Shown: one piece after another, positions 2,032-38,407 of the stretch
How positions within the stretch are numbered: the first letter of the stretch is position 1
Layout of the letters: each line of letters opens with the position of its first letter
Assembly: GCA_003135555.1 (NCBI GenBank)
Contig: PLCF01000020.1
Location: 1-44,596 of the forward strand
DNA: 44,596 bases
Reading direction: 5' to 3'
Source: Vulcanimicrobiota bacterium
Lineage (GTDB): Bacteria > Vulcanimicrobiota > Vulcanimicrobiia > Vulcanimicrobiales > Vulcanimicrobiaceae
Program-made: the position numbers and the translations under genes
Notes under the pieces: generated by a model
The model's input: only the letters and a program-made list of their open reading frames with translations
The model's database searches: none
What the model was told of the DNA's origin: nothing

Positions 2032-3960
2032 ATGCGTCTTCAGGCCAGCCTCGTCGCCATCGTACTATGGTTTGCTGCGGCGCCATCGGTGCAGCCCGTC
2101 TCGGCTGCTCCTTCGCAGCAGGCGCCGCCCCTCAAGGCAGCCATACAGTCAAAGATCGATACCGAGGTCCGGGCGCTCTTGAGCGCGGCGCACGCCCCGG
2201 GGGCGACGATCGCGATCGTTCAAGGCGGAGCGATCGTCTACACGCGCGGTTATGGACTGCGCGACGTTGCAAACTCATTGCCGTCCGACGCCCATACGCG
2301 CTACGAGATCGGGTCGATCACGAAGCAGTTCACCGCGGCCGCGATTCTGCAACTGAAGGAAGCCGGCAAGATCGATCTCGACGCGACGGTCGCCACGCAT
2401 CTTCCGTCGATCTCGCACGCCAGGGAGATCACGGTCCGGCAGCTTCTGACGCATACGAGTGGGCTACAGGATTACGTCAACATCCCGAACTTCGAGACGC
2501 TTGCCGGAACGCCGGCGACGTTCGATCAGTTGATGTCGCGAATTTCCAAAGAGCCGCTCGCCTTCACGCCTGGTGCACAGTTTGCGTACTCGAGCACGAA
2601 CTACTTGATGCTCGGCCGGATCATCGAGCTCGTTTCAGGTCAAAGCTGGGAAGCGTACGTACAGCAGCACCTCTTCGCCCCTGCCGGCATGATGGATTCG
2701 GCGACGATGGCACAAGAAGGCCAGCTTGCGGACATGGCGCGTGGTTACGTGTATGCGCAGGGCCACACCGCCGAGTCCAAGCCAATCGCCGAATCCTGGG
2801 CGTCCTCCGCCGGAGGCATCGTGTCCACGGCCGGCGACCTGCAGAAATGGGCCGAGGCGTTGTCTTCGGGCCGCATCATCTCGACATCCGACTACCAGCT
2901 CCTCACCAGCCCTGCGCGGCTGACGGACGGTTCTGCCGGCGAATACGGATTCGGAATGAAAATCGATCGCTTTGAGGGTCAGCCGCGAGTCTGGCACGAC
3001 GGCAACACCAATGGCTTCGATGGAAGTGACCAGTTTTTTCCGAGCCAAGACGTGCGCATCATCGTCTTGACAAACAGCCTGGACGGCGGCAGCAGCCAAA
3101 TCGCCCAACACATTTACAACGACCTCTTTCCCGCCATTGCGGCCGCCGCTCTGCGGGCGGAAGAGGCCGCGCAGCATTCCGCATCGGCGTTACTCTATGC
3201 TCGCTCACTTCGGGTGATGAACGGCCTTCGGCAGCCGAAGTATCTCGCATACCGCCTGGAAAGCTCGAGCGACGGTCTGGAGTTTTATCTTTGGGCCGAC
3301 GCTCGCGGTCAGGTTTGGCTGCGTGGCCACGACGGTTCGACCACCGATGCCTGGACGTTTCGTCACCGCACATTCGACTACATGAGTGAAATCGTTCACG
3401 TCTCGGACGGTCGTCGTTTCGTTTCAGCACGTTCGGTTTTCGATCCGACGTGGTACGGCGCGGTTCGTGCGATGCGTCTTGGGATGTTCCTCAACCAACA
3501 AGTCCCGGTGGCACCTCGCGATAGTACCGAGGCAAGTGACGCCGGTGAGCCGCTCAAGGCGATCGGGGCGGTCTCCGTGACGGGCCCCGCCGTGTACGAC
3601 ATCGAGGATCGTGGTGCCGCATCGTGCCCGAACGGGCAGCCAGGCCACGCCTTGCACTTCACCTCGCGCAGTAGCGTCTACGAGCATCAGTTGAGCGACG
3701 TCGTCATCGAGACCAGCTCGGCACGCCTTTGTGTCATCAGATTCCTGGCTCGCGGCGCGGGAACTGTCGTAACCTCCGGTTCGTTCGAGCAACACTACGC
3801 CGACGTCAACGGCTACTGGGTGCAGACGGACGGCGTGCTCGATGGGATGTGGCAGGCTTCGAGGCTTTCACGGAAGCGTCACGGCGTTTGGCGCTATCGC
3901 TTGGTCGACATGAGCTTCCCTGCTACGCTATCAAACGAGATTTTCGCGGCGCACTTGTAA
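2032..3960 (+). CDS. Secreted serine hydrolase (beta-lactamase class C/AmpC-like) with an extra C-terminal domain
   Basis: Signal peptide MRLQASLVAIVLWFAAA; SxxK (GSITKQF), LLTHTSG, YSSTNY and HDG motifs; about 260 extra C-terminal residues. Confidence 0.85.
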   Translation: MRLQASLVAIVLWFAAAPSVQPVSAAPSQQAPPLKAAIQSKIDTEVRALLSAAHAPGATIAIVQGGAIVYTRGYGLRDVANSLPSDAHTRYEIGSITKQFTAAAILQLKEAGKIDLDATVATHLPSISHAREITVRQLLTHTSGLQDYVNIPNFETLAGTPATFDQLMSRISKEPLAFTPGAQFAYSSTNYLMLGRIIELVSGQSWEAYVQQHLFAPAGMMDSATMAQEGQLADMARGYVYAQGHTAESKPIAESWASSAGGIVSTAGDLQKWAEALSSGRIISTSDYQLLTSPARLTDGSAGEYGFGMKIDRFEGQPRVWHDGNTNGFDGSDQFFPSQDVRIIVLTNSLDGGSSQIAQHIYNDLFPAIAAAALRAEEAAQHSASALLYARSLRVMNGLRQPKYLAYRLESSSDGLEFYLWADARGQVWLRGHDGSTTDAWTFRHRTFDYMSEIVHVSDGRRFVSARSVFDPTWYGAVRAMRLGMFLNQQVPVAPRDSTEASDAGEPLKAIGAVSVTGPAVYDIEDRGAASCPNGQPGHALHFTSRSSVYEHQLSDVVIETSSARLCVIRFLARGAGTVVTSGSFEQHYADVNGYWVQTDGVLDGMWQASRLSRKRHGVWRYRLVDMSFPATLSNEIFAAHL

Positions 3961-4038
3961 TCTCAGAGATCCTCGTAGCGTTCTCATTGCACTTGCAATG
4001 CGTCGCTGCCTATCGGTGGCACGGCGCAGTCCCGCGCT

Positions 4039-5541
4039 TCAGTGGGGGCGTGCCACGGCGATCCCGTCGGGAGTGAGGCCCGCCACAAAGGGCGACCCGG
4101 CTACCGGCGTCAGCGCGCCGCTTGTCGCGTCGATGGTATACGCGGAAACACCGCTGAGGCCGGCTGCATAGGCGAACTTGCCCGCAGGGTCGGCGGCCAC
4201 GGCAACGGGCGCAGCGCCCGACCCGAACGGCGATCCCGCCACCGGCGTCAGCGCACCACTGGTCGCGCTAATGGTGTAGGCGGAAACAGCGTTGGAGCCG
4301 AGATCGGCGACAAACGCGAACCTACCGGTCGGATCGACGGCGATGCCGGCAGGAGCGTTTCCCGTACCGAACGGCGACCCGGGTACCGGCGTCAACGCGC
4401 CGCTCGTCGCGTTGATTGCCGATCCCGAAACGGTGGAGTCGCTGACGTTGGTCGCATACGCGAACTTGCCCGCCGGATCAACTGCGACGCCGGGACCCTG
4501 GCCCGCCGCAAACGGCGACCCGGGCACAGGCGTCAACGCGCCGCTCGTCCCGTCGATCGCAAAGGCGGAAACAGTGCCGTCGGCGATGTTCGTCACGTAC
4601 GCGAACTTGCTCGTCGCCGCCACGCCCTGGGGGCTGGTGCCCACCGCATAGGGCGAGCCCACGACCGGCGCCAACGCACCGCTCGCCGCATTGATCCGAA
4701 AAGCGGAGATGGTGTTGTTACCCTGGTTGGTCACGAAGGCGAACGTGCCCGTCGGATCAACGGTTACGGCTGTCGGGTTGGGACCGCCGGAGAACGGCGA
4801 CCCCGCTACCGGCGTCAGCGCACCGCTGCTCGCGTTGATCGTGTAGGCGTAGATGAATACGCTTGGGGAACTGGGCTCCCCGATCGTCGTCACATAGGCG
4901 AACTTGCCCGAGGGATCGACAGCAATGCTGTCAGGGTTCGTGCCGGTCGCAAACGGCGAACCCGGCACCGGGGTCAGCGCGCCGCTGGTCGCGTTGACGG
5001 CGTAGGCCGAAATCGTGTTGGAACTGAGGTTCACCGCATAGGCGAACTCAACGAGGGAGCCGACGACGTTCACCGCGACCGTTGCATTGTCGTCTTTGCC
5101 CTGCTTGCCGGTCACCGTAATCGTACAGGTTCCCGGACCGACGGGTGTCACCGTAAACGTAGCGCCCGACCCGCCGTCATCGCCTTCATGATGCCTGGTG
5201 TCCCGCTCCTCATCATCTCTTTTTGGCGGCTTGGTGGTTGCGGCCGACACGGTGGCGCAGCTCGTATTGGACGAACGCGCGGTGATGTCGCGAGAATCTT
5301 CGCCCGTTACCGTGAACGTTTGCGGCGCACCGCCCACCGAAAACGTGAGAGAATTTGGCGCGACCGCGATCTGCGAAGCGTCGCCTTGCCGACTCTCGCC
5401 GCGGGGAACCGATTTGCTTTGCGCTGCGGGAACGAGCCCGGCGGACGGCGTGCCGGTCCCCGACGAACCTGCGCATGACGCTAAGAACCCGATCACAGCC
5501 AGAAGCGCGAGCATCCGGGATGCGAGGCTGAATTGAATCAT
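4039..5541 (-). CDS. Lipoprotein with Ig-like stalk and seven-bladed beta-propeller (lactonase/YncE-like)
   Basis: Start MIQFSLASRMLALLAVIGFLASC has a lipobox. Seven repeats of ...SGALTPVxGSPF...VAVDPxGKFAY. Confidence 0.8.
   Translation of the reverse strand: MIQFSLASRMLALLAVIGFLASCAGSSGTGTPSAGLVPAAQSKSVPRGESRQGDASQIAVAPNSLTFSVGGAPQTFTVTGEDSRDITARSSNTSCATVSAATTKPPKRDDEERDTRHHEGDDGGSGATFTVTPVGPGTCTITVTGKQGKDDNATVAVNVVGSLVEFAYAVNLSSNTISAYAVNATSGALTPVPGSPFATGTNPDSIAVDPSGKFAYVTTIGEPSSPSVFIYAYTINASSGALTPVAGSPFSGGPNPTAVTVDPTGTFAFVTNQGNNTISAFRINAASGALAPVVGSPYAVGTSPQGVAATSKFAYVTNIADGTVSAFAIDGTSGALTPVPGSPFAAGQGPGVAVDPAGKFAYATNVSDSTVSGSAINATSGALTPVPGSPFGTGNAPAGIAVDPTGRFAFVADLGSNAVSAYTISATSGALTPVAGSPFGSGAAPVAVAADPAGKFAYAAGLSGVSAYTIDATSGALTPVAGSPFVAGLTPDGIAVARPH
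4090..5045 (-). repeat. Seven intragenic tandem repeats (about 140-160 bp) encoding propeller blades
   Basis: Motif accggcgtcagcgcgccgct-like recurs near 4102, 4240, 4384, 4526, 4662, 4807 and 4966. Confidence 0.85.
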
Positions 5542-5760
5542 GGGAGTCGCCTTCGGGGCCCTGCAAAAGCGAGGCCAAGTGCGCGCGCCAACGCTGCTGG
5601 ACCCGACCCGGCGGGCGAGGTGTAGAGCCCAAAGCCTGCCACACCGAGGACCTGTCAGCTTGCACGAGCACACAAACACTCCTCTGCTGTCGCTACTGTC
5701 GCGCCACACGGTCAATATTGAACAGGGCGTTGATCCGGCGCTTCGAACCCGGAACATATC

Positions 5761-6717
5761 GTGAGCAAGCAGCGGCCGCCGGGTTCGAATTGGGGCGACT
5801 ACGGAGTCGACGACCGCGTCGGGCGGCTCAACGAGCTCACGCCCGACCGCGTCGTGCAGGCGGCGGCGGAGATTCGGACGGGGCAGCGGTTTTGCCTCAG
5901 CCTTCCGCTCGACTATCCGGGCGGAAACGTCGTCTTTCCGTTCCGCCTTCCACCGCAGCGCAAGGTCGTCGACCGGATGGGGTTCGTGGCGCACGACTTC
6001 CCGTTCTCGCGCCAGCGCGAAGGTGCGACCGGCGTCGTCAACGACGATATCGTGACGCTGTGGACGCAGTACTCGACGCAATGGGACGCGTTCGGGCACG
6101 TCGGTTCGCACTTCGACGCGAACGGCGACGGCGAGGCCGAGGTCGTCTACTACAACGGCCACTATCCCGGCCCCGACGTCGACGGGATGGCGACGATCGG
6201 GCTGCAAGGCCGCGGCGTCATGGTCGACCTCCATCGCAAGTACGGACACGCGAAGATCGCCGTCGACCACGCCATGTTCGAGGAGATCTTGCGCGAGCAG
6301 GGCGTGGTCGTCGAGCCGGGCGACATCCTCGCGCTGCGCACGGGCTGGGCGCAGCTCTTGGTCGACATGAAGGGCTCGCCGGACAAAGAGGTCGTGCACA
6401 ACTCCGGCGCCGGGCTCGACTCGCGCGACCCGAAGATGCTCGAGTGGATCGCTCGGAGCGGCGTCGCGGCGATCGTCGCCGATAACCTCGCCGTCGAAGC
6501 CTACCCGCCCAAACCGGGCGAGGCCGGCACGCCCTACTTGCCGCTGCACGAGCTCTGCCTTTTCAAGCTCGGCATCAACTTGGGCGAGATGTGGTATCTC
6601 ACCGAGCTGGCCGACTGGCTTCAACACAACGAGCGCACGCGCTTCTTCTTGACCGCGCCACCGCTGCGCTTGCGCGGTCACGTCGGTTCGCCCGTCACCC
6701 CGATCGCAACGGTCTGA
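5761..6717 (+). CDS. Cyclase family (kynurenine formamidase-like) metal-dependent hydrolase
   Basis: NWG...GRLN N-terminus, QYSTQWDAFGH metal motif, GDILALRTG, ADNLAVE, LGEMWYL and GSPVTPIA. Confidence 0.85.
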   Translation: MSKQRPPGSNWGDYGVDDRVGRLNELTPDRVVQAAAEIRTGQRFCLSLPLDYPGGNVVFPFRLPPQRKVVDRMGFVAHDFPFSRQREGATGVVNDDIVTLWTQYSTQWDAFGHVGSHFDANGDGEAEVVYYNGHYPGPDVDGMATIGLQGRGVMVDLHRKYGHAKIAVDHAMFEEILREQGVVVEPGDILALRTGWAQLLVDMKGSPDKEVVHNSGAGLDSRDPKMLEWIARSGVAAIVADNLAVEAYPPKPGEAGTPYLPLHELCLFKLGINLGEMWYLTELADWLQHNERTRFFLTAPPLRLRGHVGSPVTPIATV

Positions 6718-6775
6718 GGAGATTGACTATGGACCTGGATCCAGACGGCAACCCGATTCTAGTGGATCAACACGT

Positions 6776-7630
6776 CTAGGTACGATTGGCAGGTTGATCG
6801 CGCGAGGCGTTCGGCGGGAAATCCGGCAGCGATTGGATTTGGCCGTTCCAGCGAAGTGCTTCTACGTCGTCGAACAACGCGATGTCGGTGCGGAGCGTCG
6901 CGAGCGTCCGAAAGAGCAGCACCAGATCGCGGTCGCGCGCGAGAATCTGCGCCAGCTTGGCGGGACTCGCAACGCTGACGTTCCAGTCGCGCGGGTCGGC
7001 CGGGATCGCTTCGAGGTGCCCGTACTTGGCAAGGACGGCCGCGGCTGATTTCGCGCCCCACCCGGCTAACCCCGGGAAGCCGTCCGCCGCGTCACCGACC
7101 AGCGCCAAATAGTCCGGAATGCTCTCCGGCCGAACGCCGAACTTGGCGACGACCCCAGCTTCGTCGAAAAATGTCCGGGTACGGCGATTGAGCTGCACGA
7201 CGCGGGTGCCGCGCACGCACTGCGCGAGGTCTTTGTCCGGCGTGCAGATGATCACGCGCTCGACGCGCGGATCGCCGGCTGCGGCGGCGGCCACCGCCGC
7301 CAAAGCGTCATCGGCTTCGAATTCGACCATCGGCCACACGACGATCCCGGCTTCGACGAGCGCCTCTTCGAGCAGCGGGAACTGCGCGAAGAGTTCGGGG
7401 TCGATCCCCTCACCCGTCTTATATCCTGGCCACAGGCCATTGCGGAACGATTCGATCACGTGGTCGGTGGCGACGCCGAGATGGGTCGCACCCTCGCGCA
7501 GCAGGCCGCGGATCGACGCGAGCACGCCGCGGACCGCCGCAATCTCCCGGCCCTGGGCGTCACGTGCCGACGGCAGCGCGTAGTAGTGGCGAAACAGCTC
7601 GTAGGTGCCGTCGATGACGTGGACTAGCAC
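6776..7630 (-). CDS. Stand-alone 5'-3' exonuclease / flap endonuclease (PolI 5'-nuclease-like)
   Basis: VIDG, EADD, DKDL and H3TH motif DYLALVGDAADGFPGLAGWGAKSA. Confidence 0.9.
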   Translation of the reverse strand: MLVHVIDGTYELFRHYYALPSARDAQGREIAAVRGVLASIRGLLREGATHLGVATDHVIESFRNGLWPGYKTGEGIDPELFAQFPLLEEALVEAGIVVWPMVEFEADDALAAVAAAAAGDPRVERVIICTPDKDLAQCVRGTRVVQLNRRTRTFFDEAGVVAKFGVRPESIPDYLALVGDAADGFPGLAGWGAKSAAAVLAKYGHLEAIPADPRDWNVSVASPAKLAQILARDRDLVLLFRTLATLRTDIALFDDVEALRWNGQIQSLPDFPPNASRDQPANRT

Positions 7631-29665: not shown

Positions 29666-31246
29666 TCAGCCGCTTTCGCGGGCGCGCAGAACGTGACGGC
29701 GGATCTTTCCCGTCGCGGTCTTGGGCAGCTCCGGGACGAACTCGATCCAGCGCGGGTACTTGTACGGCGCCAAGCGGCTCTTCACGTGCGCCTGCAAGAC
29801 CTCGACGAGGTCGGCGCGCGCTTCGATCCCCGGCTTGAGGACCACGAACGCCTTGGGTTTGACGAGGCCGTGGTCGTCGGCGACGCCGATCACCGCAGCT
29901 TCGAGCACCTGCTGGTGTGCGACGAGCGCGGCTTCGACCTCGCTCGGCGACACCCAGATCCCCCCGACTTTGAGCATATCGTCGACGCGGCCGCAATAGA
30001 CGAAGTACCCATCCTCGTCCTGGCGGTACTTGTCGCCGGTGCGCGTCCACTCGCCGGCAAAGGTGCTGCGCGACTTGGCGCGGTTGTTCCAATAGTACGC
30101 CGCCGCGGTCGGGCCGCTGACCTCGAGCTCCCCGAGCTCGCCGGGCGCGACCTCGCGTCCGTCGTCGCCGACGATGCGGGTGCGGTAGCCCGGGACCGGC
30201 AGCCCGGTGGTGCCGTAGCGCACCGCGCCGGGCCGGTTCGAGACGAAGATGTGCAGCATCTCGGTCGAGCCGATCCCGTCGATGATCTCGTGGCCGAAGC
30301 GCGCGGTCCAGTTCTTGCCGATCTCCTCGGGGAGCGGCTCGCCGGCCGAGATGCACAGCCGCAGCGCGAGGTCCTCGCGCGCGGGGAGCTGCGGGTGGAC
30401 CAGCAGCGCGCCGAACAGCGTCGGAACACCGCAGAAGATCGTCGCGCGCTGCTCGCGCAACAGCCGGCTCACGACCTCCGGGGTCGCCCGACCGGCATGC
30501 AGCACCGCGGTCGCCCCGACCGACATCGGGAACGTCAGCGCGTTGCCCAACCCGTAAGCGAAGAACAGTTTGGCGGCCGAATAGACGATGTCGCTCTCGC
30601 ACAGGCCGAGCACGTTCTGGGCGAACAGCTCGGCGGTCGCAATCAGGCTCGTCTGGACGTGCACCGCCCCTTTGGGCGTGCCGGTCGAGCCCGAAGAGTA
30701 GAGCCAGAAGCAGGCGTCGTCGGGGCGCGTCGGCGCGGGCTGCGCGAGCGGCGTCGCGTCGAGCACCAGCGACGCCAGCGTCGGCCGGCGTCCGTCGGCG
30801 AGCGTGGCGCGCGGGTCGGAGACGATGATGCGGCCGGGCCAGCCGGCGAGCCGCGCGGCTTCTTCGTAGTGCGCGAGCAGCTCCGCCGAAACGATTGCGA
30901 CCTTCGCGCGGCTGTCGGCGAGGATGAACGCGAAGTCCGCCGGCTGGAAGAGCGTGTTGACCGGGATGGGGACGATCCCGGCTTTGATCGCGCCCAGGAA
31001 CACCACCGGAAAGTCGAGCGTGTCGAGCAGTCCCAGCACGACGCGGTCTTCCATCTCGAGGCCCAGCCCCAGGAGCGCGCCGGCGCACCGATCGACTCGT
31101 TGCGCGAGCTCGCCGTACGTCTGCGCGCCGCCGTCATCGATGAAGGCCGTCTTCCCGGCCCTCGCCGGAAGGTTTCGGCCGATGAGGTCCGCGGCCGCGT
31201 TGTACAACGACGGGGCCGCGATCGACGAAGGCTCGGAGGCGATCAT
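29666..31246 (-). CDS. Benzoate-CoA ligase
   Basis: GGAG RBS; YNAAADL, YSSGSTGTPKG, KLFFAYGLGN, DGIGSTEMLHIF, LPKTATGKI; divergent from boxR-boxC-boxB. Confidence 0.9.
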   Translation of the reverse strand: MIASEPSSIAAPSLYNAAADLIGRNLPARAGKTAFIDDGGAQTYGELAQRVDRCAGALLGLGLEMEDRVVLGLLDTLDFPVVFLGAIKAGIVPIPVNTLFQPADFAFILADSRAKVAIVSAELLAHYEEAARLAGWPGRIIVSDPRATLADGRRPTLASLVLDATPLAQPAPTRPDDACFWLYSSGSTGTPKGAVHVQTSLIATAELFAQNVLGLCESDIVYSAAKLFFAYGLGNALTFPMSVGATAVLHAGRATPEVVSRLLREQRATIFCGVPTLFGALLVHPQLPAREDLALRLCISAGEPLPEEIGKNWTARFGHEIIDGIGSTEMLHIFVSNRPGAVRYGTTGLPVPGYRTRIVGDDGREVAPGELGELEVSGPTAAAYYWNNRAKSRSTFAGEWTRTGDKYRQDEDGYFVYCGRVDDMLKVGGIWVSPSEVEAALVAHQQVLEAAVIGVADDHGLVKPKAFVVLKPGIEARADLVEVLQAHVKSRLAPYKYPRWIEFVPELPKTATGKIRRHVLRARESG

Positions 31247-31300
31247 AGGAATCTCCGTGACGGTGCGGGGGCCGGGCCTGGACTCGCGGCCGTGTGTAGC

Positions 31301-31308
31301 ATTATAAT
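31301..31308. repeat. Left target-site duplication ATTATAAT
   Basis: Identical 8-mer at 34130-34137 directly flanks the other TIR. Confidence 0.9.
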
Positions 31309-31336
31309 GGCTATTATTACCTTGACACAACAAGCA
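31309..31336 (+). repeat. Left terminal inverted repeat of the IS
   Basis: Pairs with 34102-34129. Confidence 0.9.
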
Positions 31337-31350
31337 GGCTCCTGTAGAAT
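31322..31350 (+). promoter_or_regulatory. Sigma-70 promoter of the transposase (probably leaderless)
   Basis: TTGACA (31322-27), 17 nt, TAGAAT (31345-50), then 6 nt to the ATG at 31357; no SD. Confidence 0.75.
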
Positions 31351-31356
31351 AGACGC

Positions 31357-32301
31357 ATGGACCGGATACCAACGCCGACCACGCTCCTCGAAGCCGTCCG
31401 CGCTTTTGCTGACCGGCAGGTCGCTCACGACTACTTCGTCGCGATCCGTTGGCCGAACGGGATGGCTTGCCCCCGCATAGGCTGCGGATCGGCGGACGTG
31501 GTGCGGATCGCGCAGCGCAACCTGTGGAAGTGCCATGAGTGCAAGCGGCAGTTTACCGCCAAGGTGAACACGGTTTTTGAGGACTCGCCGATTGGCTTCG
31601 ACAAGTGGCTTCCGGCCCTGTGGCTGCTCGCGAGCAACCGTAACGGAATCTCGTCGTGCGAGCTGTCGCGCGGACTGAACGTGTCGCAGAAGGCGGCATG
31701 GTTCATGCTCCATCGCCTGCGGCTGATGATGCGTAGCGGGACGTGGGACCGGCTCTCGGGAGAGGTCGAGGTTGACGAGACGTACGTCGGTGGAAAGACG
31801 CGGCGTTTCGTGCCAATGGCGGTCCGCATTGGGAAGGCTCGCAAGCAGGCGAAAATGGACGCGAAAACCGTCGTCCTCGGAATGGTCGAGCGCGGTGGGC
31901 GGGTGCGCGCTATGGTCGTCGCGAGCAACCGTAAAGTCACGCTCGCTCCGCGCGTCCTCGGGAACGTCGCGCCCGGTTCGACGCTGTATACCGACTCGTT
32001 GCGCTCCTACATCGGGATGCAGGCCGTCTATTCGCACCACGTTATCAATCACGCGGTGGCCTACGTCGAAGGCAAAGTCCACACGAACAACATCGAGAAC
32101 TTTTGGTCCGTCCTCAAGCGCACGTTGGCGGGGACGTATATCGCCGCGCGCCCGTTCCATCTGGACGCGTACTTGGACGAGCAAGTGTTTCGCTTCAACG
32201 CCCGCGAGGACAACGATGGCGATCGGTTCGTGCAAGCCCTCAAGGGCGCGGATGGCCGACGCGTGACGTGGGCCGAACTAACTGACAAGGCCGACCGCTA
32301 G
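31357..32301 (+). CDS. IS1595 family DDE transposase
   Basis: Zn ribbon (RWPNGMACPRIGC...WKCHEC), HTH, VEVDETYVGG, LYTD, HTNNIENFWS, YLDE..FRFN. Confidence 0.95.
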   Translation: MDRIPTPTTLLEAVRAFADRQVAHDYFVAIRWPNGMACPRIGCGSADVVRIAQRNLWKCHECKRQFTAKVNTVFEDSPIGFDKWLPALWLLASNRNGISSCELSRGLNVSQKAAWFMLHRLRLMMRSGTWDRLSGEVEVDETYVGGKTRRFVPMAVRIGKARKQAKMDAKTVVLGMVERGGRVRAMVVASNRKVTLAPRVLGNVAPGSTLYTDSLRSYIGMQAVYSHHVINHAVAYVEGKVHTNNIENFWSVLKRTLAGTYIAARPFHLDAYLDEQVFRFNAREDNDGDRFVQALKGADGRRVTWAELTDKADR

Positions 32302-32540
32302 GGTTCAGAGTCGCCTGCGTCGGCAGCGCGACGCAGTGGGATCGGCGCGCTTCTGCGACGTCGAACTCTAGCGGTCCCCTCACGCTTCCAAGCGTCGATA
32401 ATCGCGTCCGCGTTCTGAAGACCGTACCGGAGAAAGAGATCGACCAAGAAGCTCTTCAGAACCTTACGGTCCGTGCTCTCTAGCGCGAGCTCGCCATCGA
32501 GTATGGGGTCGATCTTCAGAGAGCCGCGCTTGTCGGCCAT
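32298..32540 (-). CDS. Small IS passenger protein (80 aa), function unknown
   Basis: TACAAT -10 box 8 nt upstream of the ATG; stop shares CTAG with the transposase stop; basic C-terminus. Confidence 0.55.
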   Translation of the reverse strand: MADKRGSLKIDPILDGELALESTDRKVLKSFLVDLFLRYGLQNADAIIDAWKREGTARVRRRRSAPIPLRRAADAGDSEP

Positions 32541-32562
32541 GGGCGGCTATTGTAACCCAATC

Positions 32563-32609
32563 GTCCCCGGTTGTCCCCAACTGGGGAAGGATGGGGACAA
32601 ATGGGGACA
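32563..32609. repeat. Helically phased GTCCCC/GGGGACA direct and inverted repeats
   Basis: GTCCCC at 32563 and 32573; ATGGGGACA at 32591 and 32601; TTGTCCCCA/TGGGGACAA perfect 9-bp IR. Confidence 0.7.
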
Positions 32610-32733
32610 GAAGCGCCAGGACCAGCCCGGTCACGAGGAGCCGCCAAGGGCGGCACGTAAGTGGCCGGACCCCCCAATTGATGAGCCGCCAGCTCTTGCA
32701 AACGCTGGCAGCTCTGAGGGTGGGGGAGACAAA

Positions 32734-32805
32734 TGCCGCCGGTGGGGTCTGCCCCCACGCCTTCCGGATCCAGAATCCGGTGCTCGCTGACTGAGCTACG
32801 GCGGC
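32734..32805 (-). tRNA. Non-canonical tRNA-like gene, anticodon CTG (Gln-type)
   Basis: GCCGCCG-TA-GCTC-AGTCAGC-GAGC-A-CCGGA-TTCTGGA-TCCGG-AAGGC-GTGGG-GGCAGAC-CCCAC-CGGCGGC-A: all four stems are Watson-Crick perfect, 72 nt; lacks D-loop GG, TTC and encoded CCA. Confidence 0.8.
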
Positions 32806-32970
32806 CTATGTCGGGGAAGCCGGGGTCCGCAAGGGCCTCGTCTCCCTGTTCCTGAGAACAAATCTTCTCCGCCGCGACTTTGCCTTTGTCCTGCGGCAAT
32901 GCACAACACCCTGCGACGAACGCGCGTTCGTGCACAGCATCTAGCCCTGTAACGGCGGTACCGAGCTGCG

Positions 32971-33129
32971 TTACGCGGTCTTGTTTTTAGGTTTTGGGCC
33001 CCGCCTGATGCGGGGCTTTTCGCGCTCTGCCTTGGCTAGCGCGTCGATCTCGCTCTTCGGGACGGCGGCGGCGCGCGCTACGAACGCCTCGAAGGGGATC
33101 GGCGGCTTTGCCGGCTCAGGCTTTGCCAT
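32971..33129 (-). CDS. Small basic IS passenger protein (52 aa; below the ORF-track cutoff)
   Basis: MAKPEPAKPPIPFEAFVARAAAVPKSEIDALAKAEREKPRIRRGPKPKNKTA*, preceded by extended -10 TGgTACACT 7 nt upstream of the ATG. Confidence 0.6.
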   Translation of the reverse strand: MAKPEPAKPPIPFEAFVARAAAVPKSEIDALAKAEREKPRIRRGPKPKNKTA

Positions 33130-33161
33130 CGGTATGAGTGTACCACGAAACCCCGACGGCG

Positions 33162-33860
33162 CTACAACGTCACTGTGCGGTAAAGGTCCGCATGCTCACG
33201 TAGCAGCTTCTTCACCAAAGCGCCAAGAGATACTAAGACGACCTGTATGCCTTGTCGTCGAGCAAGCTTCATCGCAGGAACCAAGTCAGAGTCACAAGCT
33301 ACGAAGACAAGCCGATGAACGAGGTGCTCTTTCGCCATCATCGCTGAATCGACCCCGATCTTCAAGTCGGTGCCCTTCTGTTTGAGAACCGGCTTGAAAT
33401 CCGTGGCGACGAAATGGCGATGCGTTTGAATTACGTCGCTTAGCGAATCATCAAGAGGAATCCAGCCGTCGAAGGATATTTCACCCAATCGCACTGCGAA
33501 GTATTCTTCCAGGCGCAGGAAGTTTAGCATTTGGTTCTGGTGACTGACCGCCGCAGGCTCGACAATCGGCGTTAGCATGCCGAGCGGATGTGGCTTGACC
33601 TTCGATGGGCCGCCGCTGTACGGCGGACAGTCATAGTAGAAAATACGATAGATGGTTTCCTGTTTCGCATCGACGCAACTCTTCGCGAATTGCACAACGC
33701 GCCGCGCGTAGTCTCGGGGCCCGATCAAATCATGGATTTGCTTCATGGTGCCGTCGGCGCGCTTCAACGATTGTCCGGCGGCGCGCAGTTGCGCGCGCAA
33801 CGACTGCTTGATCTTGACCCGCAAGAAGCCACCGTCGATGAGAACCGCTGTTCGTAACAC
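33162..33860 (-). CDS. NYN domain (LabA/DUF88, PIN-like fold) putative RNase
   Basis: VLIDGGFL, RIFYYDC, KQKGTDLKIGVD, DSDLVPAMKLARRQGIQV; acidic catalytic residues intact. Confidence 0.88.
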   Translation of the reverse strand: MLRTAVLIDGGFLRVKIKQSLRAQLRAAGQSLKRADGTMKQIHDLIGPRDYARRVVQFAKSCVDAKQETIYRIFYYDCPPYSGGPSKVKPHPLGMLTPIVEPAAVSHQNQMLNFLRLEEYFAVRLGEISFDGWIPLDDSLSDVIQTHRHFVATDFKPVLKQKGTDLKIGVDSAMMAKEHLVHRLVFVACDSDLVPAMKLARRQGIQVVLVSLGALVKKLLREHADLYRTVTL

Positions 33861-33901
33861 AGGATTACTATGTTAGCAGAAATTGGTTAACGGGGCCCAG
33901 G

Positions 33902-33936
33902 AAACAACAAAGGGGCCCCTTTCGGGTCCCCTTTGT
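33902..33936 (-). terminator. Intrinsic terminator-like hairpin
   Basis: Minus strand ACAAAGGGG-A-CCC-GAAA-GGG-G-CCCCTTTGT followed by TGTTT; GNRA loop. Confidence 0.6.
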
Positions 33937-33961
33937 CAGACCGGCCTACCGGTGTACGGAT
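33902..33961 (-). ncRNA. Candidate small structured RNA upstream of the NYN gene
   Basis: Follows TTGACT...TAATAT; hairpin ACCGG-TAGG-CCGGT, then a terminator-like hairpin. Confidence 0.4.
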
Positions 33962-33967
33962 AAAACC

Positions 33968-33998
33968 ATATTAGCCGGGCTATGTTCCGAAAAGTCAA
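33968..33998 (-). promoter_or_regulatory. Putative inward-facing sigma-70 promoter for the cargo
   Basis: TTGACT (33998-93) and TAATAT (33973-68); the 19-nt spacer is suboptimal. Confidence 0.4.
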
Positions 33999-34101
33999 TA
34001 CCTTTGTCGTTAATATACGACTTTTGTCGCATTAAGGCCATTTTGGTTGACACACCCCCCGGCCGCCTCGCCCGGTTCCAGCTATAGCCCGGCTCTCCCC
34101 T

Positions 34102-34129
34102 TGCTTGTTGTGGCAAGGTAGTAATAGCG
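34102..34129 (-). repeat. Right terminal inverted repeat of the IS
   Basis: Reverse complement matches 31309-31336 at 25/28. Confidence 0.9.
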
Positions 34130-34137
34130 ATTATAAT
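34130..34137. repeat. Right target-site duplication ATTATAAT
   Basis: Identical to 31301-31308. Confidence 0.9.
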
Positions 34138-34159
34138 GCACACGAGTGGGCACGCCAGC

Positions 34160-35095
34160 GTGATAGTGCATTCGCTCGGCGAAGGCGACGCCGCCTTCCG
34201 CGCGCTCGGGGACCGGGTGCGAGAGCTGCGGGCACGCCGCGGGATGACCCGCAAGATCCTGGCCAAAGACTCCGGCGTTTCGGAGCGCTACCTCGCGCAG
34301 CTCGAGACCGGCCAGGGCAACGCGTCGCTGGCGATCCTGCGCCGCATCGCGCGCGCGCTGGACGTCCCGCTCGAGGCGCTGGTCGCCGACGCGCCTGAGG
34401 CGCCGGCCGACTTGGCGCAGGCCGTCGCGTTGCTGCGGCGCCTTGGGCCCGAACAGCTCGGCGAGGCGCGCGCGCTGCTGGTGCGTACCTTCGGCGAGGC
34501 CGATGCCGCGGGGCGCGCCGGCCGGATCGCGCTCATCGGGCTGCGCGGCGCTGGGAAAACGACGCTCGGCGCGGCACTCGCGGAACGCCTGGGCGTGCCG
34601 TTCGTCGAGCTGGATCGCGAGGTCGAGCGAGCCGGCGGCGTTCCGCTCGCGACGATCTTCGACTTCTACGGGCAGCCCGGGTTCCGCCGCCTGGAGCGCC
34701 GCTGCCTCGACCGCGTGATCGAGGAGCATCCGCGCTTCGTCCTCGCCACCGGCGGAAGCATCGTCTCGGAACCCTCGACCTTCGAGCGGCTGCTCGCCGC
34801 CTGTTTCACGGTCTGGCTCAAGGCCGCGCCCGCCGAGCACATGGCGCGCGTCGTCGCGCAAGGCGACATGCGTCCGATGGCCGGAAACCGTGAGGCGATG
34901 GCCGACCTGCAGCGCATTTTGGCCGGGCGCGAACCGCTCTACCGCCGCGCCGACGCCGAGGTGGACACGACCGCGAAGGAGGCCGGCCAGAGCATCGACG
35001 CCTTGCTGCACGCAATTCCGGGACCCAGCGGCAGACCATCGGCGGGTAGGATTCGTTACAGCGATAGCCTCGCACCACCGAAGGCCGAAAGGTAG
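34160..35095 (+). CDS. boxR: BoxR/BzdR-type regulator (XRE HTH plus shikimate-kinase-like domain); start uncertain (34136/34160/34166)
   Basis: LGDRVRELRARRGMTRKILA..SGVSERYLAQLETG.GN; IALIGLRGAGKTTLG; RVVAQGDMRPM; box cluster context. Confidence 0.9.
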   Translation: MIVHSLGEGDAAFRALGDRVRELRARRGMTRKILAKDSGVSERYLAQLETGQGNASLAILRRIARALDVPLEALVADAPEAPADLAQAVALLRRLGPEQLGEARALLVRTFGEADAAGRAGRIALIGLRGAGKTTLGAALAERLGVPFVELDREVERAGGVPLATIFDFYGQPGFRRLERRCLDRVIEEHPRFVLATGGSIVSEPSTFERLLAACFTVWLKAAPAEHMARVVAQGDMRPMAGNREAMADLQRILAGREPLYRRADAEVDTTAKEAGQSIDALLHAIPGPSGRPSAGRIRYSDSLAPPKAER

Positions 35096-35223
35096 CCGTG
35101 CCGATACCCCTCCTCCTCAAGCTGCTCGCCGGGACCGCCGTGACCTCGATCGTGTGCGCCGGCCTCGTCGCCGGGTTCGGCTGGCCCTGGCCGCTCCGTC
35201 CGCCGAAAAAGCGCCCCCGAACG

Positions 35224-35267
35224 GCACCATAATGCTTGCCTGGCAATGGAAGCTGCAGTATAGTTCA
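35224..35267 (+). promoter_or_regulatory. boxC promoter with two putative BoxR operator boxes
   Basis: TTGCCT (35236), 17 nt, TATAGT (35259); boxes GCACCATAATGC (35224) and TGCAGTATAGTTCA (35254), resembling TGCA-N6-TGCA sites of BzdR/BoxR. Confidence 0.65.
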
Positions 35268-35299
35268 TCTCACCCTTGCAGATGACCGCTGGAGAACGC

Positions 35300-36976
35300 A
35301 TGGTCACGGTCGACGCGCCGGCCGAGCCCGGCCTGGTCATTTTCGAGACCGCACCCGAACGCTATCGCCACTGGCGGCTGAGCGTCGAGGGGCGCGTCGC
35401 CACGCTCGCGCTCGACGTCGATGAAGACGCGGGGATCCGCCCCGGCTACAAGCTCAAGCTCAACTCCTACGATCTCGGCGTCGACATCGAGTTCCACGAC
35501 GCGCTCAACCGGATCCGTTTCGAGCACCCGCAGGTCGCGTGCGTCGTGGTGACCAGCGCCAAGGACCGCTCGTTCTGCGCCGGCGCGAACATCTACATGC
35601 TCGGCACGTCGTCGCACCACTGGAAAGTGAACTTCTGCAAGTTCACCAACGAGACACGCAACGGGATGGAAGATTCGAGCCGCCACGACGGGCTGCGGTT
35701 CGTCGCGGCGATCAACGGCGCGTGCGCCGGTGGCGGTTACGAGATCGCGCTGGCGTGCGACGAGATACTGATGGTCGACGACCGCTCGACCGCGGTCAGC
35801 CTGCCCGAGGTCCCGCTGCTGGGCGTGCTGCCCGGGACCGGCGGGCTCACGCGCGTGCTCGACAAGCGCAAGGTGCGGCGCGACCTCGCCGACCTGTTCT
35901 GCACCAACGCCGACGGCGTGCGTGCCGAGCGCGCGAAGGCATGGAAGCTCGTCGACGACGTCGCGCCGCCCTCGGAGTTCGCCGCGCTGGTACGCGAGCA
36001 CGCCGCCGCGCTCGCCGCGTCGTCGCCGCGGAGCGCCGATGCGCAGGGCATCGCGTTGCAACCGCTGGCACGCAGCATCGACGAGCACGGCTACCACTAC
36101 TCCACCGTCGACGTCACGTTCGAACGCGCGGCACGCCGGGCCACCATCACGGTGCGCGCGCCGGGCCAACCGCAACCCGACGCTGCCGATGCCATCGTCG
36201 CCGCCGGCGACGCATGGTGGCCGCTGGCGCTCGGGCGCGAGCTCGACGACGCGATCCTCATGCTGCGCACCAACGAGCCCGAGCTCGGCTTGATCGTCCT
36301 GCGTACGCAGGGCGATGCCGCAGCGGTGCTCGCCGTCGACCGCACGCTCTTGGCGCTGCGCGAGCACTGGCTGGTGCGCGAGACGATCGCCTTTTTGCGC
36401 CGCACGCTGGCCCGTCTCGACGTCACCTCGCGCAGCCTCTATGCGGTCATCGACCACGGTTCGTGCTTCGCCGGCACGCTGCTCGAGCTGGCGCTGGCGG
36501 CCGATCGCACCTTCATGCTCGCGCTGCCCGACGACGTCGAGGCGGGGCCGGCGATCGTGCTGGGCGAGGCCAACTTCGGCGCCTACCCGGTCGTCAACGG
36601 CCGCACGCGCCTGCAGACGCGCTTCGACGGCGAGCCCGCGACGGTCGAACGGCTGCGCGACCGGCTCGGACGACGGCTCGATGCGCAAGCGGCGCTCGAC
36701 GCGGGACTGATCACCGTCGCGCCCGACGATCTCGATTGGGACGACGAGATTCGCTTAGCGTTGGAGGAGCGCGCCTCGCTGTCACCCGACGCGCTGTCCG
36801 CGATGGAGGCGAACCTGCGCTTCCCGGGCGACGAAACGCTCGAGACGAAGATCTTCGGGCGCCTTTCGGCGTGGCAGAACTGGGTGTTCTACCGCCCCAA
36901 CTCCACCGGCGAGCGCGGCGCGCTCAAACTTTTCGGCAGCGGCACCAAGCCGCTCTTCGACCAGGAACGAGTGTAG
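35300..36976 (+). CDS. boxC: 2,3-epoxybenzoyl-CoA dihydrolase
   Basis: GGAG RBS; YRHWRL, GYKLKLNSYDLGVDIE, KVNFCKFTNETRN, tandem crotonase domains, FGRLSAWQNWVF. Confidence 0.95.
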   Translation: MVTVDAPAEPGLVIFETAPERYRHWRLSVEGRVATLALDVDEDAGIRPGYKLKLNSYDLGVDIEFHDALNRIRFEHPQVACVVVTSAKDRSFCAGANIYMLGTSSHHWKVNFCKFTNETRNGMEDSSRHDGLRFVAAINGACAGGGYEIALACDEILMVDDRSTAVSLPEVPLLGVLPGTGGLTRVLDKRKVRRDLADLFCTNADGVRAERAKAWKLVDDVAPPSEFAALVREHAAALAASSPRSADAQGIALQPLARSIDEHGYHYSTVDVTFERAARRATITVRAPGQPQPDAADAIVAAGDAWWPLALGRELDDAILMLRTNEPELGLIVLRTQGDAAAVLAVDRTLLALREHWLVRETIAFLRRTLARLDVTSRSLYAVIDHGSCFAGTLLELALAADRTFMLALPDDVEAGPAIVLGEANFGAYPVVNGRTRLQTRFDGEPATVERLRDRLGRRLDAQAALDAGLITVAPDDLDWDDEIRLALEERASLSPDALSAMEANLRFPGDETLETKIFGRLSAWQNWVFYRPNSTGERGALKLFGSGTKPLFDQERV

Positions 36977-36982
36977 CCAACC

Positions 36983-38407
36983 GTGTCGATCGACTATGCG
37001 GAGCGCATCCCCAACAACGTCGAGCTGGCGTCGAACCGCACCCTCCAGCGCGCGCTCGAGCACTGGCAGCCCGAGTTCTTGAACTGGTGGAAGGAGATGG
37101 GTCCGACCGACTTCAACGCGGCCGACGTCTACTTGCGCACCGCGATCTCGGTCGACGCCAAAGGCTGGGCCAACTACGGCTACGTGCGCATGCCCGACTA
37201 CCGCTGGGGGATCTTCTTGGCCGAACCCGAGCCGGATCGTCGCGTCGGCTTCGGCGACGATTTCGGCAAGCCGGTCTGGCAGCAAGTCCCCGGCGAGTAT
37301 CGCAGCGCGCTACGGCGGCTCATCGTGACTCAAGGCGACACCGAGCCGGCGTCGGTCGAGCAGCAACGGCTCCTCGGCCACACCGCGCCCTCACAGTACG
37401 ATCTGCGCAACTTGTTCCAGGTCAACGTCGAGGAGGGCCGTCACCTCTGGGCGATGGTCTACCTGCTGCACGCCTACTTCGGGCGTGACGGCCGCGAGGA
37501 AGCCGAAGAGCTGCTCGCGCGCCATTCGGGCGACGCCGACAAGCCGCGCATTCTGGGGACGTTCAACGAGCCGATCAACGACTGGCTGTCGTTCTTCATG
37601 TTCACCTTCTTCACCGACCGCGACGGGAAGTTCCAGCTCAAGTCGTTCGCGGAGTCGAGTTTCGATCCGCTCGCACGCACCTGCCGCTTCATGCTCACCG
37701 AAGAAGCGCACCACATGTTCGTCGGCGACACCGGCATCTCACGGGTGACGAAGCGCACGCTCGAAGTCATGCGCGAGCTGGGGACCGACGAGCCCGACGC
37801 GGTCCGGCGGGCAGGCGCGATCGACTTCCCGACGCTGCAGCGCTATCTGAACTTTTGGTTCAGCTCCTCGCTGGATCTGTTCGGCTCCGAAGCGTCGTCC
37901 AACGCGGCGGCCTATTTCGCCAACGGGATCAAAGGCCGCCCGGACGAGAAGAAATACGAAGACCACCTCGCGCGCGCGACGAGCGTCGAGCTCGACGTCC
38001 CCGACGGCAAGGGCGGCATCCGCGTCGAGAGCGTCCCGCTGCGCAACGCCATGAACGAGGTGGTGCGCAACTCCTACGTCGAGGACTGCATGCGCGGGCT
38101 GACGCGCTGGAACCGGCTCATCGAGGCCGCCGGCCACGGCTTTCGCTTCAGCCTGCCGAGCACGCGATTCCGGCGCACGATCGGGAACTGGGCCAACGTG
38201 CCGACCGACCCGGCGGGGCGGCCGATCTCGCAAGCGGAGTACGACGCCCAGATCGCGTCGTGGCTGCCCAGCGACGCCGATCGCGCGTTCATCGCGAGCT
38301 TGATGGTGCGCGTTGTCGAGCCGGGCAAGATGGCCGGTTGGATCGCGCCCCCCGAGAAGGGCATCAAAGACCGTTCCATCGACTACGACTACGTGCGGCT
38401 GGCCTGA
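36983..38407 (+). CDS. boxB: Benzoyl-CoA 2,3-epoxidase subunit B (di-iron)
   Basis: IPNNV, QGDTEPASVEQQ, EEGRH and EEAHH di-iron ligands, DRDGKFQL. Confidence 0.97.
   Translation: MSIDYAERIPNNVELASNRTLQRALEHWQPEFLNWWKEMGPTDFNAADVYLRTAISVDAKGWANYGYVRMPDYRWGIFLAEPEPDRRVGFGDDFGKPVWQQVPGEYRSALRRLIVTQGDTEPASVEQQRLLGHTAPSQYDLRNLFQVNVEEGRHLWAMVYLLHAYFGRDGREEAEELLARHSGDADKPRILGTFNEPINDWLSFFMFTFFTDRDGKFQLKSFAESSFDPLARTCRFMLTEEAHHMFVGDTGISRVTKRTLEVMRELGTDEPDAVRRAGAIDFPTLQRYLNFWFSSSLDLFGSEASSNAAAYFANGIKGRPDEKKYEDHLARATSVELDVPDGKGGIRVESVPLRNAMNEVVRNSYVEDCMRGLTRWNRLIEAAGHGFRFSLPSTRFRRTIGNWANVPTDPAGRPISQAEYDAQIASWLPSDADRAFIASLMVRVVEPGKMAGWIAPPEKGIKDRSIDYDYVRLA

Follow-up and report, generated by a model that had tools for sequence, protein, structure and literature searches.

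Insertion sequences (IS) are thought to carry only what their mobility needs, with occasional passenger protein genes, and within the IS1595 family Siguier, Gagnevin and Chandler reportedly described, in 2009, a class of 'transporter IS' with passenger genes. Among transfer RNAs (tRNAs), the staphylococcal non-proteinogenic tRNA-Gly species have lost the D-loop GG together with the T-loop consensus; they do not serve the ribosome but, with their glycine identity kept, feed cell-wall synthesis. In tRNA remolding, an anticodon mutation shifts a tRNA to another alloacceptor class, whereupon it acquires a new identity set and replaces a lost tRNA. Mukai et al. (2017; PMC5389517), in the passage concerned, report irregular tRNAs from peat and forest soil bacteria, including G-1 tRNAs with a GGU anticodon that are charged by the histidyl-tRNA synthetase (HisRS) of Escherichia coli but unused in E. 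coli translation. The part of PMC7609411 devoted to tRNA-Pyl describes it as lacking G18, G19 and T-psi-C, with D and T loops that interact unusually, and as functional in translation. Here we describe a tRNA-like gene from a stretch of 44,596 nucleotides (nt) of an uncultured Vulcanimicrobiota bacterium from peat, of the family Vulcanimicrobiaceae (contig PLCF01000020.1 of assembly GCA_003135555.1; hereafter the window, meaning this whole stretch). It is a genuine tRNA-derived gene, a mosaic, carried as cargo of an IS1595-family element. Our favoured reading, which we hold tentatively, is that its product is a tRNA-shaped RNA, derived from the transcript of the element itself, that does not decode and whose structure is under selection, a role that we infer.

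The gene spans 72 nt of the minus strand (32805 to 32734) and forms a cloverleaf: an acceptor stem of 7 base pairs (bp) followed by U8 and A9; a 4-bp D stem with the loop AGUCAGC, followed by A26; a 5-bp anticodon stem with the loop UUCUGGA and the anticodon CUG; a variable loop AAGGC; a 5-bp T stem with the loop GGCAGAC; and a discriminator A, after which the trailer reads UUUGUC. All stem pairs (21/21) are Watson-Crick. The cloverleaf is also the minimum-free-energy fold (-41.2 kcal/mol, z = -3.89), and none of 200 shuffles folded as well. U8, A14, G15, U33, G37, C48, C56, A57 and the pair G53-C61 are present; G18, G19, A21, U54, U55 and A58 are absent. As a canonical bacterial elongator the gene fails, retaining only C56 and R57 of the T-loop consensus U54 U55 C56 R57 A58. 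The tRNA finders are divided: the Rfam tRNA model RF00005 returns the gene with identical coordinates, its score of 53.4 bits exceeding the cut-off of 29 (E = 8e-9 over the entire window), but ARAGORN called no tRNA in the window.

Much of this had been anticipated by an earlier sequence-only reading of the same DNA, which proposed a non-canonical tRNA-like gene inside an IS1595 element. The Rfam match, the transposase families and the target duplication bear that proposal out. So do the letters themselves for the 72-nt minus-strand cloverleaf with perfect 7/4/5/5 stems, for the conserved U8, A14, G15, U33 and C48, and for the missing G18G19 and the missing U54, U55 and A58 of the T loop. That reading also pointed to the lack of an encoded CCA. 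The absence is real but not diagnostic, as 16 of the 55 tRNA calls of the same genome do not encode CCA either.

The tRNA-like gene is enclosed by an IS1595-family element of 2,821 bp (31309-34129), whose features are listed below (aa, amino acids).

31301-31308, no strand: left copy of the 8-bp target-site duplication, ATTATAAT
31309-31336, no strand: left inverted repeat, with a TTGACA-17-TAGAAT promoter-like site pointing at the transposase gene (inverted-repeat search, promoter scan)
31357-32301, plus strand: IS1595-family transposase, 314 aa (Pfam, NCBIfam)
32298-32540, minus strand: putative open frame of 80 aa (open reading frame list), with a TACAAT -10-like box immediately upstream
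32683-32714, minus strand: 11-bp hairpin, 20 nt behind the tRNA-like gene
32734-32805, minus strand: tRNA-like gene, with an apparent His-type CUG anticodon arm, an apparent Thr(GGU)-type body and rewritten D and T loops
32806-32970, minus strand: spacer or leader from the 52-aa gene to the tRNA-like gene, with a hairpin conserved at about 32941-32906
32971-33129, minus strand: gene of a tiny conserved protein, 52 aa, kept in the elements of the genomes G018 and G011
33162-33860, minus strand: NYN (LabA/DUF88) nuclease-like passenger gene, 232 aa (Pfam PF01936)
34102-34129, no strand: right inverted repeat
34130-34137, no strand: right copy of the target-site duplication, ATTATAAT

Read along the minus strand, the cargo thus runs from the NYN gene through the 52-aa gene, a 165-nt spacer, the tRNA-like gene and a hairpin to the 80-aa frame. 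The transposase matches the Pfam families DDE_Tnp_IS1595 (1.5e-38) and Zn_ribbon_IS1595 (3.6e-11) and scores 174.8 bits against NCBIfam NF033547, where the cut-off is 75. The ends of the element are 28-nt inverted repeats matching at 25 of 28 bases, so that a zinc-ribbon DDE transposase, terminal inverted repeats and an 8-bp target duplication, the marks of IS1595 membership, are all found. The insertion lies between a benzoate-CoA-ligase-like gene and a boxR-like regulator, at a site that is empty in the relatives G008 (locus L015) and G015 (locus L020), where GCATTATA(A/G)TGCA stands in single copy.

The same site is also seen empty in a peat sample. In run X1, position 31300 is followed immediately by 34130 in a contig of depth 36, and the IS-bearing contig has a depth of 10. 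Because the empty site and the insertion co-occur in this one sample, we take the insertion as recent and the element as recently active. The four runs compared comprise DNA contigs only, and since the peat runs are possibly the source of the assembly, their independent value is confined to this co-occurrence.

A covariance model built from the tRNA-like gene alone and run on 44 genomes of the genus points to the ancestry of the gene's body. The model scores 108 bits on the gene itself and 50-58 bits on the next best matches, one or two per genome. The nine of these matches that were fetched are all tRNA-Thr (seven loci with the anticodon GGU, two with CGU). Relative to the nearest of six tRNA-Thr(GGU) genes, 2 of the 32 bases in the acceptor, D and T stems are changed, and the two form one compensated pair (U3-A70 to C3-G70). 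The T stem is identical, and the U73 of the genus tRNA-Thr is replaced by A73.

The anticodon arm resembles other tRNAs. Over its 17 nt it is one mismatch away (16/17 identical) from a tRNA-His(GUG) arm found in 7 of the 44 genus genomes, and ARAGORN calls this arm tRNA-His(GUG) in both loci checked. The single change, G34 to C, removes the GUG anticodon. The sequence-only reading had likened the arm to that of tRNA-Gln(CUG). Such a likeness exists, at two mismatches from the arm of 2 of the 44 genomes, but tRNA-His is closer. On these comparisons, the gene appears to be a mosaic that sets a tRNA-His-type anticodon arm on a tRNA-Thr(GGU)-type body. As to the host's own tRNA set, no tRNA-His, tRNA-Lys, tRNA-Arg(UCU) or tRNA-Pro(UGG) was called in this genome. 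In relatives these four form one cluster, which is probably just unassembled here, the assembly being 84% complete.

None of the identity sets for Gln, His and Thr is complete in the gene. For Gln, a YUG anticodon is present (CUG), and in place of U1-A72 and G73 stand G1-C72 and A73. For His, the pair G-1:C73 is missing, as the base before G1 is G and the discriminator is A. In E. coli, threonyl-tRNA synthetase (ThrRS) recognizes G1-C72 and C2-G71, with G35 and U36 as major determinants; the gene has the first two pairs and, given its anticodon CUG, lacks G35 and U36. The host's tRNA-Gln(CUG) and tRNA-Gln(UUG) both have U1-A72 and G73, and their bodies are unrelated to that of the tRNA-like gene. 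These differences rule out an ordinary tRNA-Gln, and the earlier reading was right to set one aside.

Related elements can be recognized by the tiny 52-aa protein, which is also conserved in the elements of G018 and G011, two further species of the genus. Of 401 phylum genomes sampled, 25 encode it (a tally that counts the unpublished genome G370), next to IS1595 transposase genes, to which its gene is usually convergent. A second copy in the same genome, on contig C9, consists of the 52-aa gene and an IS1595 transposase without cargo. Being conserved and placed beside IS1595 transposases, the 52-aa gene therefore belongs to the core of this IS lineage. Twenty-four of the 25 genomes were scanned for tRNAs, and inverted repeats were searched locus by locus. 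A tRNA lies inside an inverted-repeat-bounded element in five of them (this genome, G018, G011, G153 and G406), and in G394 a tRNA lies 150 nt from the 52-aa gene on a short contig. Metagenome loci with the 52-aa protein hold a tRNA in three of six cases (L103, L106 and L107), the L106 tRNA being identical in sequence to that of the G011 element.

The tRNAs of these sister elements are consistently odd. Their anticodons disagree with their bodies, and C33 or a mismatched anticodon stem is seen in several. Those of G018 and G011 combine a His-type acceptor end (G-1) and C73 with the anticodons UGC and AGU, respectively. The closest relative of the window element is L103, whose 52-aa protein is 78% identical and whose order (tiny gene, leader of about 170 nt, tRNA, transposase end) is that of the window. 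Despite this positional orthology, the L103 tRNA is very different from the window gene: it combines a body of tRNA-His type, comprising G-1, the acceptor, both the D and T arms and C73, with an anticodon arm of foreign origin carrying GUU. Sister elements carry other odd tRNAs, but the exact gene was found in none of them, and BLAST of the IS region against 40 relatives yielded no alignment covering the tRNA-like gene. Judged from these sequences, the IS lineage appears to carry tRNA-His derivatives with exchanged modules, the window copy keeping the His anticodon arm on a Thr-type body. This class of cargo is recurrent but undescribed in print.

Such mismatched tRNAs might still be charged and used. 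In that case, the window gene would function as a missense tRNA, reading CAG in a low-level, deliberate mistranslation, with the elbow tuning its use. ThrRS, acting through G1-C72 and C2-G71, would be the likeliest enzyme to charge it, though it could be another. We consider this quite unlikely, although several features would suit it. U33, G37 and A38 stand in an intact anticodon stem-loop, and six of the seven bases of this loop are those of the host tRNA-Gln(CUG). The T stem sets the affinity for EF-Tu, and here it is that of tRNA-Thr(GGU). In addition, the sister elements keep the HisRS pair G-1:C73 together with non-His anticodons, suggesting that charging matters in the lineage. As an example of an unusual elbow that works in translation there is tRNA-Pyl, in the relevant part of PMC7609411. 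However, the ThrRS determinants G35 and U36 named above are absent, the U73 of the genus tRNA-Thr has become A73, and the irregular G-1 tRNAs in the passage of PMC5389517 were charged without being used in E. coli translation.

In the elbow of the molecule, where the D and T loops meet, the core contacts U8-A14, G15-C48, G53-C61 and the base C56 are kept and the D/T-loop corner is rewritten. The D and T loops, which are invariant among the six host tRNA-Thr(GGU) genes, differ from these at 8 of 14 bases, and the contrast between stems and loops is significant (Fisher p = 3.8e-4), with the reference tRNA picked after the fact. Because the stems are intact while the D and T loops have changed to this extent, the loop changes look selected rather than decayed, in line with what the sequence-only reading had supposed.

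Decay is a competing reading. A host tRNA gene, or pieces of several, might have been captured by the IS along with neighbouring DNA and might now be drifting without a function. The tRNA-like gene is a singleton, as such a passenger could be, and most copies of the IS lineage do without a tRNA: none was found in the other three IS1595 copies of this genome, nor in or beside the element in 18 of the 24 scanned genomes with the 52-aa protein. Relaxed anticodon arms in the sisters (a mismatched pair and C33 in G011 and L107, an irregular arm in G406) would also suit it. We nonetheless think decay unlikely. All 21 pairs remain Watson-Crick though at least five universally conserved loop positions have changed; the changes concentrate in the loops and not in the stems, where the only two are compensated; the element was recently active; and the leader ahead of the gene is conserved with L103.

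A second case of a similar elbow comes from the same genome. A tRNA-Phe(GAA) in an array on contig C83 has the D loop AGACAGUUG and the T loop UGCGAGC, without the D-loop GG and the T-loop UUC, and shares with the tRNA-like gene the combination of C17-A18-G19 with G55-C56. The sequence-only reading held that G19-C56 could be retained while G18-psi55 appears replaced by A18/G55. The C83 tRNA-Phe lends this modest support, with two cases only. A MAFFT alignment of the two tRNAs is structurally poor, and the covariance model built from the window gene (R1) scores the C83 tRNA-Phe at 24 bits. Literature searches on A18/G55 returned nothing.

The C83 array itself (G000:C83:48687-50222; locus L131) comprises 16 tRNA genes at a contig end, including a tRNA with the amber-reading anticodon CUA. 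A relative has an array of 17 tRNA genes (L123; G002:C1:85868-88884), in which tRNA-Arg(CCG) and tRNA-Glu(UUC) have non-standard elbows. Other array tRNAs of the genus show different odd elbows. It may be added that three loops of the window gene hold CAG, CUG and CAG, the anticodon being complementary to triplets of the D and T loops, an observation made post hoc and given no weight. Targets of the three loops in the element transcripts amounted to scattered 6-mers, with no 7-mers. A T-box-like pairing of the anticodon with the leader was likewise considered and is not supported by the comparison with L103.

The NYN gene, two genes upstream of the tRNA-like gene, brings in a different explanation. 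Its product matches Pfam PF01936 at 25.5 bits (2e-5; cut-off 24.2) and the PADLOC NYN model at 4.8e-5, and has 375 homologues at E <= 1e-5, many of them with PF01936; comparison with sequences of solved structures gave nothing useful. The tRNA-like RNA could act as a decoy, antitoxin or substrate of this nuclease-like protein, or of a host or phage anticodon nuclease attacking tRNA-His or tRNA-Gln. Consistent with this, the NYN, 52-aa and tRNA-like genes are co-directional on the minus strand, the G018 element has both NYN and a tRNA, the anticodon loop closely copies those of the host tRNA-His and tRNA-Gln, and NYN models occur in the defence-gene library.

The distribution of the two genes speaks otherwise. 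An odd tRNA was found at none of 17 loci with NYN homologues on genome contigs. Three of the 17 have tRNA calls nearby, namely ordinary tRNAs at L029 and L030 and two ARAGORN-only calls at L033 that Rfam does not confirm. At eight NYN loci of the phylum, scanned with ARAGORN (8/8) and Rfam (7/8), the one tRNA found was an ordinary tRNA-Pro. In G029 and G238 the element carries NYN but no tRNA, in G011 and G153 a tRNA but no NYN, and the sister tRNAs have many different anticodon loops. The pairing of RNA and nuclease genes across relatives that marks a type III toxin-antitoxin or decoy system is thus not conserved, and a nuclease partnership seems very doubtful to us. With copies in the elements of the window, G018, G029 and G238, NYN is a recurrent but optional passenger.

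The remaining cargo bears on how the tRNA-like RNA might be made. The leader is 71-74% identical to the sequence at the equivalent position in L103, and in a two-sequence consensus fold of the two leaders both sides have changed in 8 of 37 predicted pairs. Its conserved hairpin (32906-32941, minus strand), in which several pairs differ from L103 on both strands of the stem with pairing preserved, stands directly behind the 52-aa gene and is followed by a TGTTGTG motif resembling the IS ends. The 11-bp hairpin on the other side of the tRNA-like gene has a counterpart with changed letters at the equivalent place in the L103 alignment. It lacks a U tract, and the scan did not report it among terminators; it is possibly the end of the transcript. 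The 52-aa protein itself has no family match in Pfam, NCBIfam or PADLOC scans; its 16 homologues are all unnamed, and a protein atlas gave no function. The 80-aa frame, too, has no family match in these scans and no similarity to the open reading frame at the equivalent place in L103; the promoter scan places a promoter-like site for it at 32577-32549. Directly upstream of it lies a 17-bp imperfect hairpin with GTCCCC repeats (32563-32608), whose Rfam matches, mraW and mir-4436, are weak and at chance level.

On the favoured reading, that of a non-decoding tRNA-shaped RNA, the gene would be transcribed on the minus strand behind the 52-aa gene and the conserved leader hairpin, and the RNA would be released by RNase P and 3' processing. 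It would be kept for its tRNA shape and not for reading CAG, and might serve the element by setting the ends or the stability of the 52-aa transcript or by occupying a tRNA-binding factor. We favour a non-decoding role on account of the incomplete identity sets and the non-standard elbow: neither U1-A72/G73 nor G-1:C73 nor G35 U36 is there for ordinary decoding, and the host has its own tRNA-Gln(CUG).

Several observations weigh against this reading. The gene stands alone: the single-sequence covariance model found no other match in the 43 other genus genomes and none at E <= 5e-9 in 150 other genomes of the family, and a metagenome scan for a pattern made from its D arm and T loop returned no match. 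A T-arm scan of viral contigs gave one match, which lies in coding DNA and is not a tRNA. No RNA runs are listed as containing the IS cargo, and in the promoter scan nothing promoter-like immediately precedes the gene. Co-transcription with the 52-aa gene is therefore suggested by gene order and spacing, together with the conserved leader and the hairpin behind the gene. The 18 scanned genomes without a tRNA indicate that the element does not need one, and where one is present its position and orientation relative to the 52-aa gene vary, which fits poorly with a fixed role in processing the 52-aa transcript. The perfect anticodon stem, U33 and the purine at position 37 are as in a decoding tRNA. 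By analogy with tRNA-Pyl, in the part of PMC7609411 already mentioned, a changed elbow would be no proof of a non-decoding role, and the stem-loop contrast carries its after-the-fact reference.

We also speculate on a wider scheme, which we rate as unlikely. The IS1595 lineage might keep a modular partner gene derived from tRNA-His and swap its acceptor, body and anticodon modules with host tRNAs. The new corner (C17-A18-G19 with G55-C56), seen also in a second, mobile-looking tRNA, might hide the RNA from elbow-reading factors while it is still processed and perhaps charged. Such an RNA would be a mobile orthogonal tRNA, acting outside normal decoding or in targeted mistranslation.

The insertion site has features of its own. 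The ATTATAAT site holds related IS1595 elements in this genome (31301-31308 and 34130-34137 of the window) and in G011 in the same orientation, and in G018 and a metagenome contig in inverted orientation (the other loci being L018, 2681-6035; L017, 2506-7089; and L105, about 3620-7100). The differing orientations imply at least two independent insertions, so that the site looks like a hot spot. Each IS end provides a -35-like hexamer (GTGTCA, GTGGCA) 16 nt from the duplicated TATAAT (31301-31328 on the minus strand and 34110-34137 on the plus strand). The resulting hybrid promoters may let both divergent flanking genes keep a promoter after insertion. On one flank, 34136-38407, lie the genes of the boxR-like regulator (helix-turn-helix and shikimate-kinase domains), an enoyl-CoA hydratase-type protein and a PaaA/PaaC-like oxygenase, and on the other an AMP-binding ligase gene (29666-31372, minus strand). 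We take these genes to be a cluster of the aerobic benzoyl-CoA (box) pathway.

If true, an IS lineage that repeatedly carries reshuffled, mismatched tRNA genes would either open a new route by which mistranslating or decoy tRNAs spread or show a transposon putting the tRNA shape to a new use. The window copy offers a natural bacterial tRNA body with its core kept and its elbow rewritten, which is of interest for what RNase P, modification enzymes, EF-Tu and the ribosome require and for the design of orthogonal tRNAs. For now, this value is limited by the gene being a singleton.

Set against the known systems, the locus shares with the transporter IS the zinc-ribbon DDE transposase, the terminal repeats, the 8-bp duplication and extra genes between the ends, and it differs by its tRNA passenger and its tiny conserved second protein. 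Full-text literature searches returned nothing on tRNA genes inside IS1595 elements or on the tiny protein. Like the staphylococcal tRNA-Gly species, the window gene has lost the D-loop GG and the T-loop consensus; unlike them, it holds no complete identity set, whereas they keep that of glycine. Pfam and NCBIfam scans revealed no Fem-type or other aminoacyl-tRNA transferase gene in the element. The single change from G34 to C on a tRNA-His-type arm, which gives a new reading, resembles remolding, but here a third tRNA type supplies the body, and the host retains its own tRNA-Gln(CUG). With tRNA-Pyl, as treated in the relevant part of PMC7609411, the gene has in common the missing G18, G19 and T-psi-C, but has none of its short D loop, 3-nt variable loop, long anticodon stem, dedicated synthetase or CUA anticodon. 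A parallel in kind is with the irregular, allo-tRNA-like tRNAs in the passage of PMC5389517, in which peat-soil origin and identity elements that mismatch the anticodon recur. Those tRNAs have 8/4 or 9/3 acceptor/T-stem geometry or extra loops, and the passage describes no IS1595 carrier, whereas the window gene is IS1595-borne and has the standard 7/5 geometry, A73 and a rewritten corner. The sister elements, however, carry exactly such G-1:C73 tRNAs with non-His anticodons as that passage describes.

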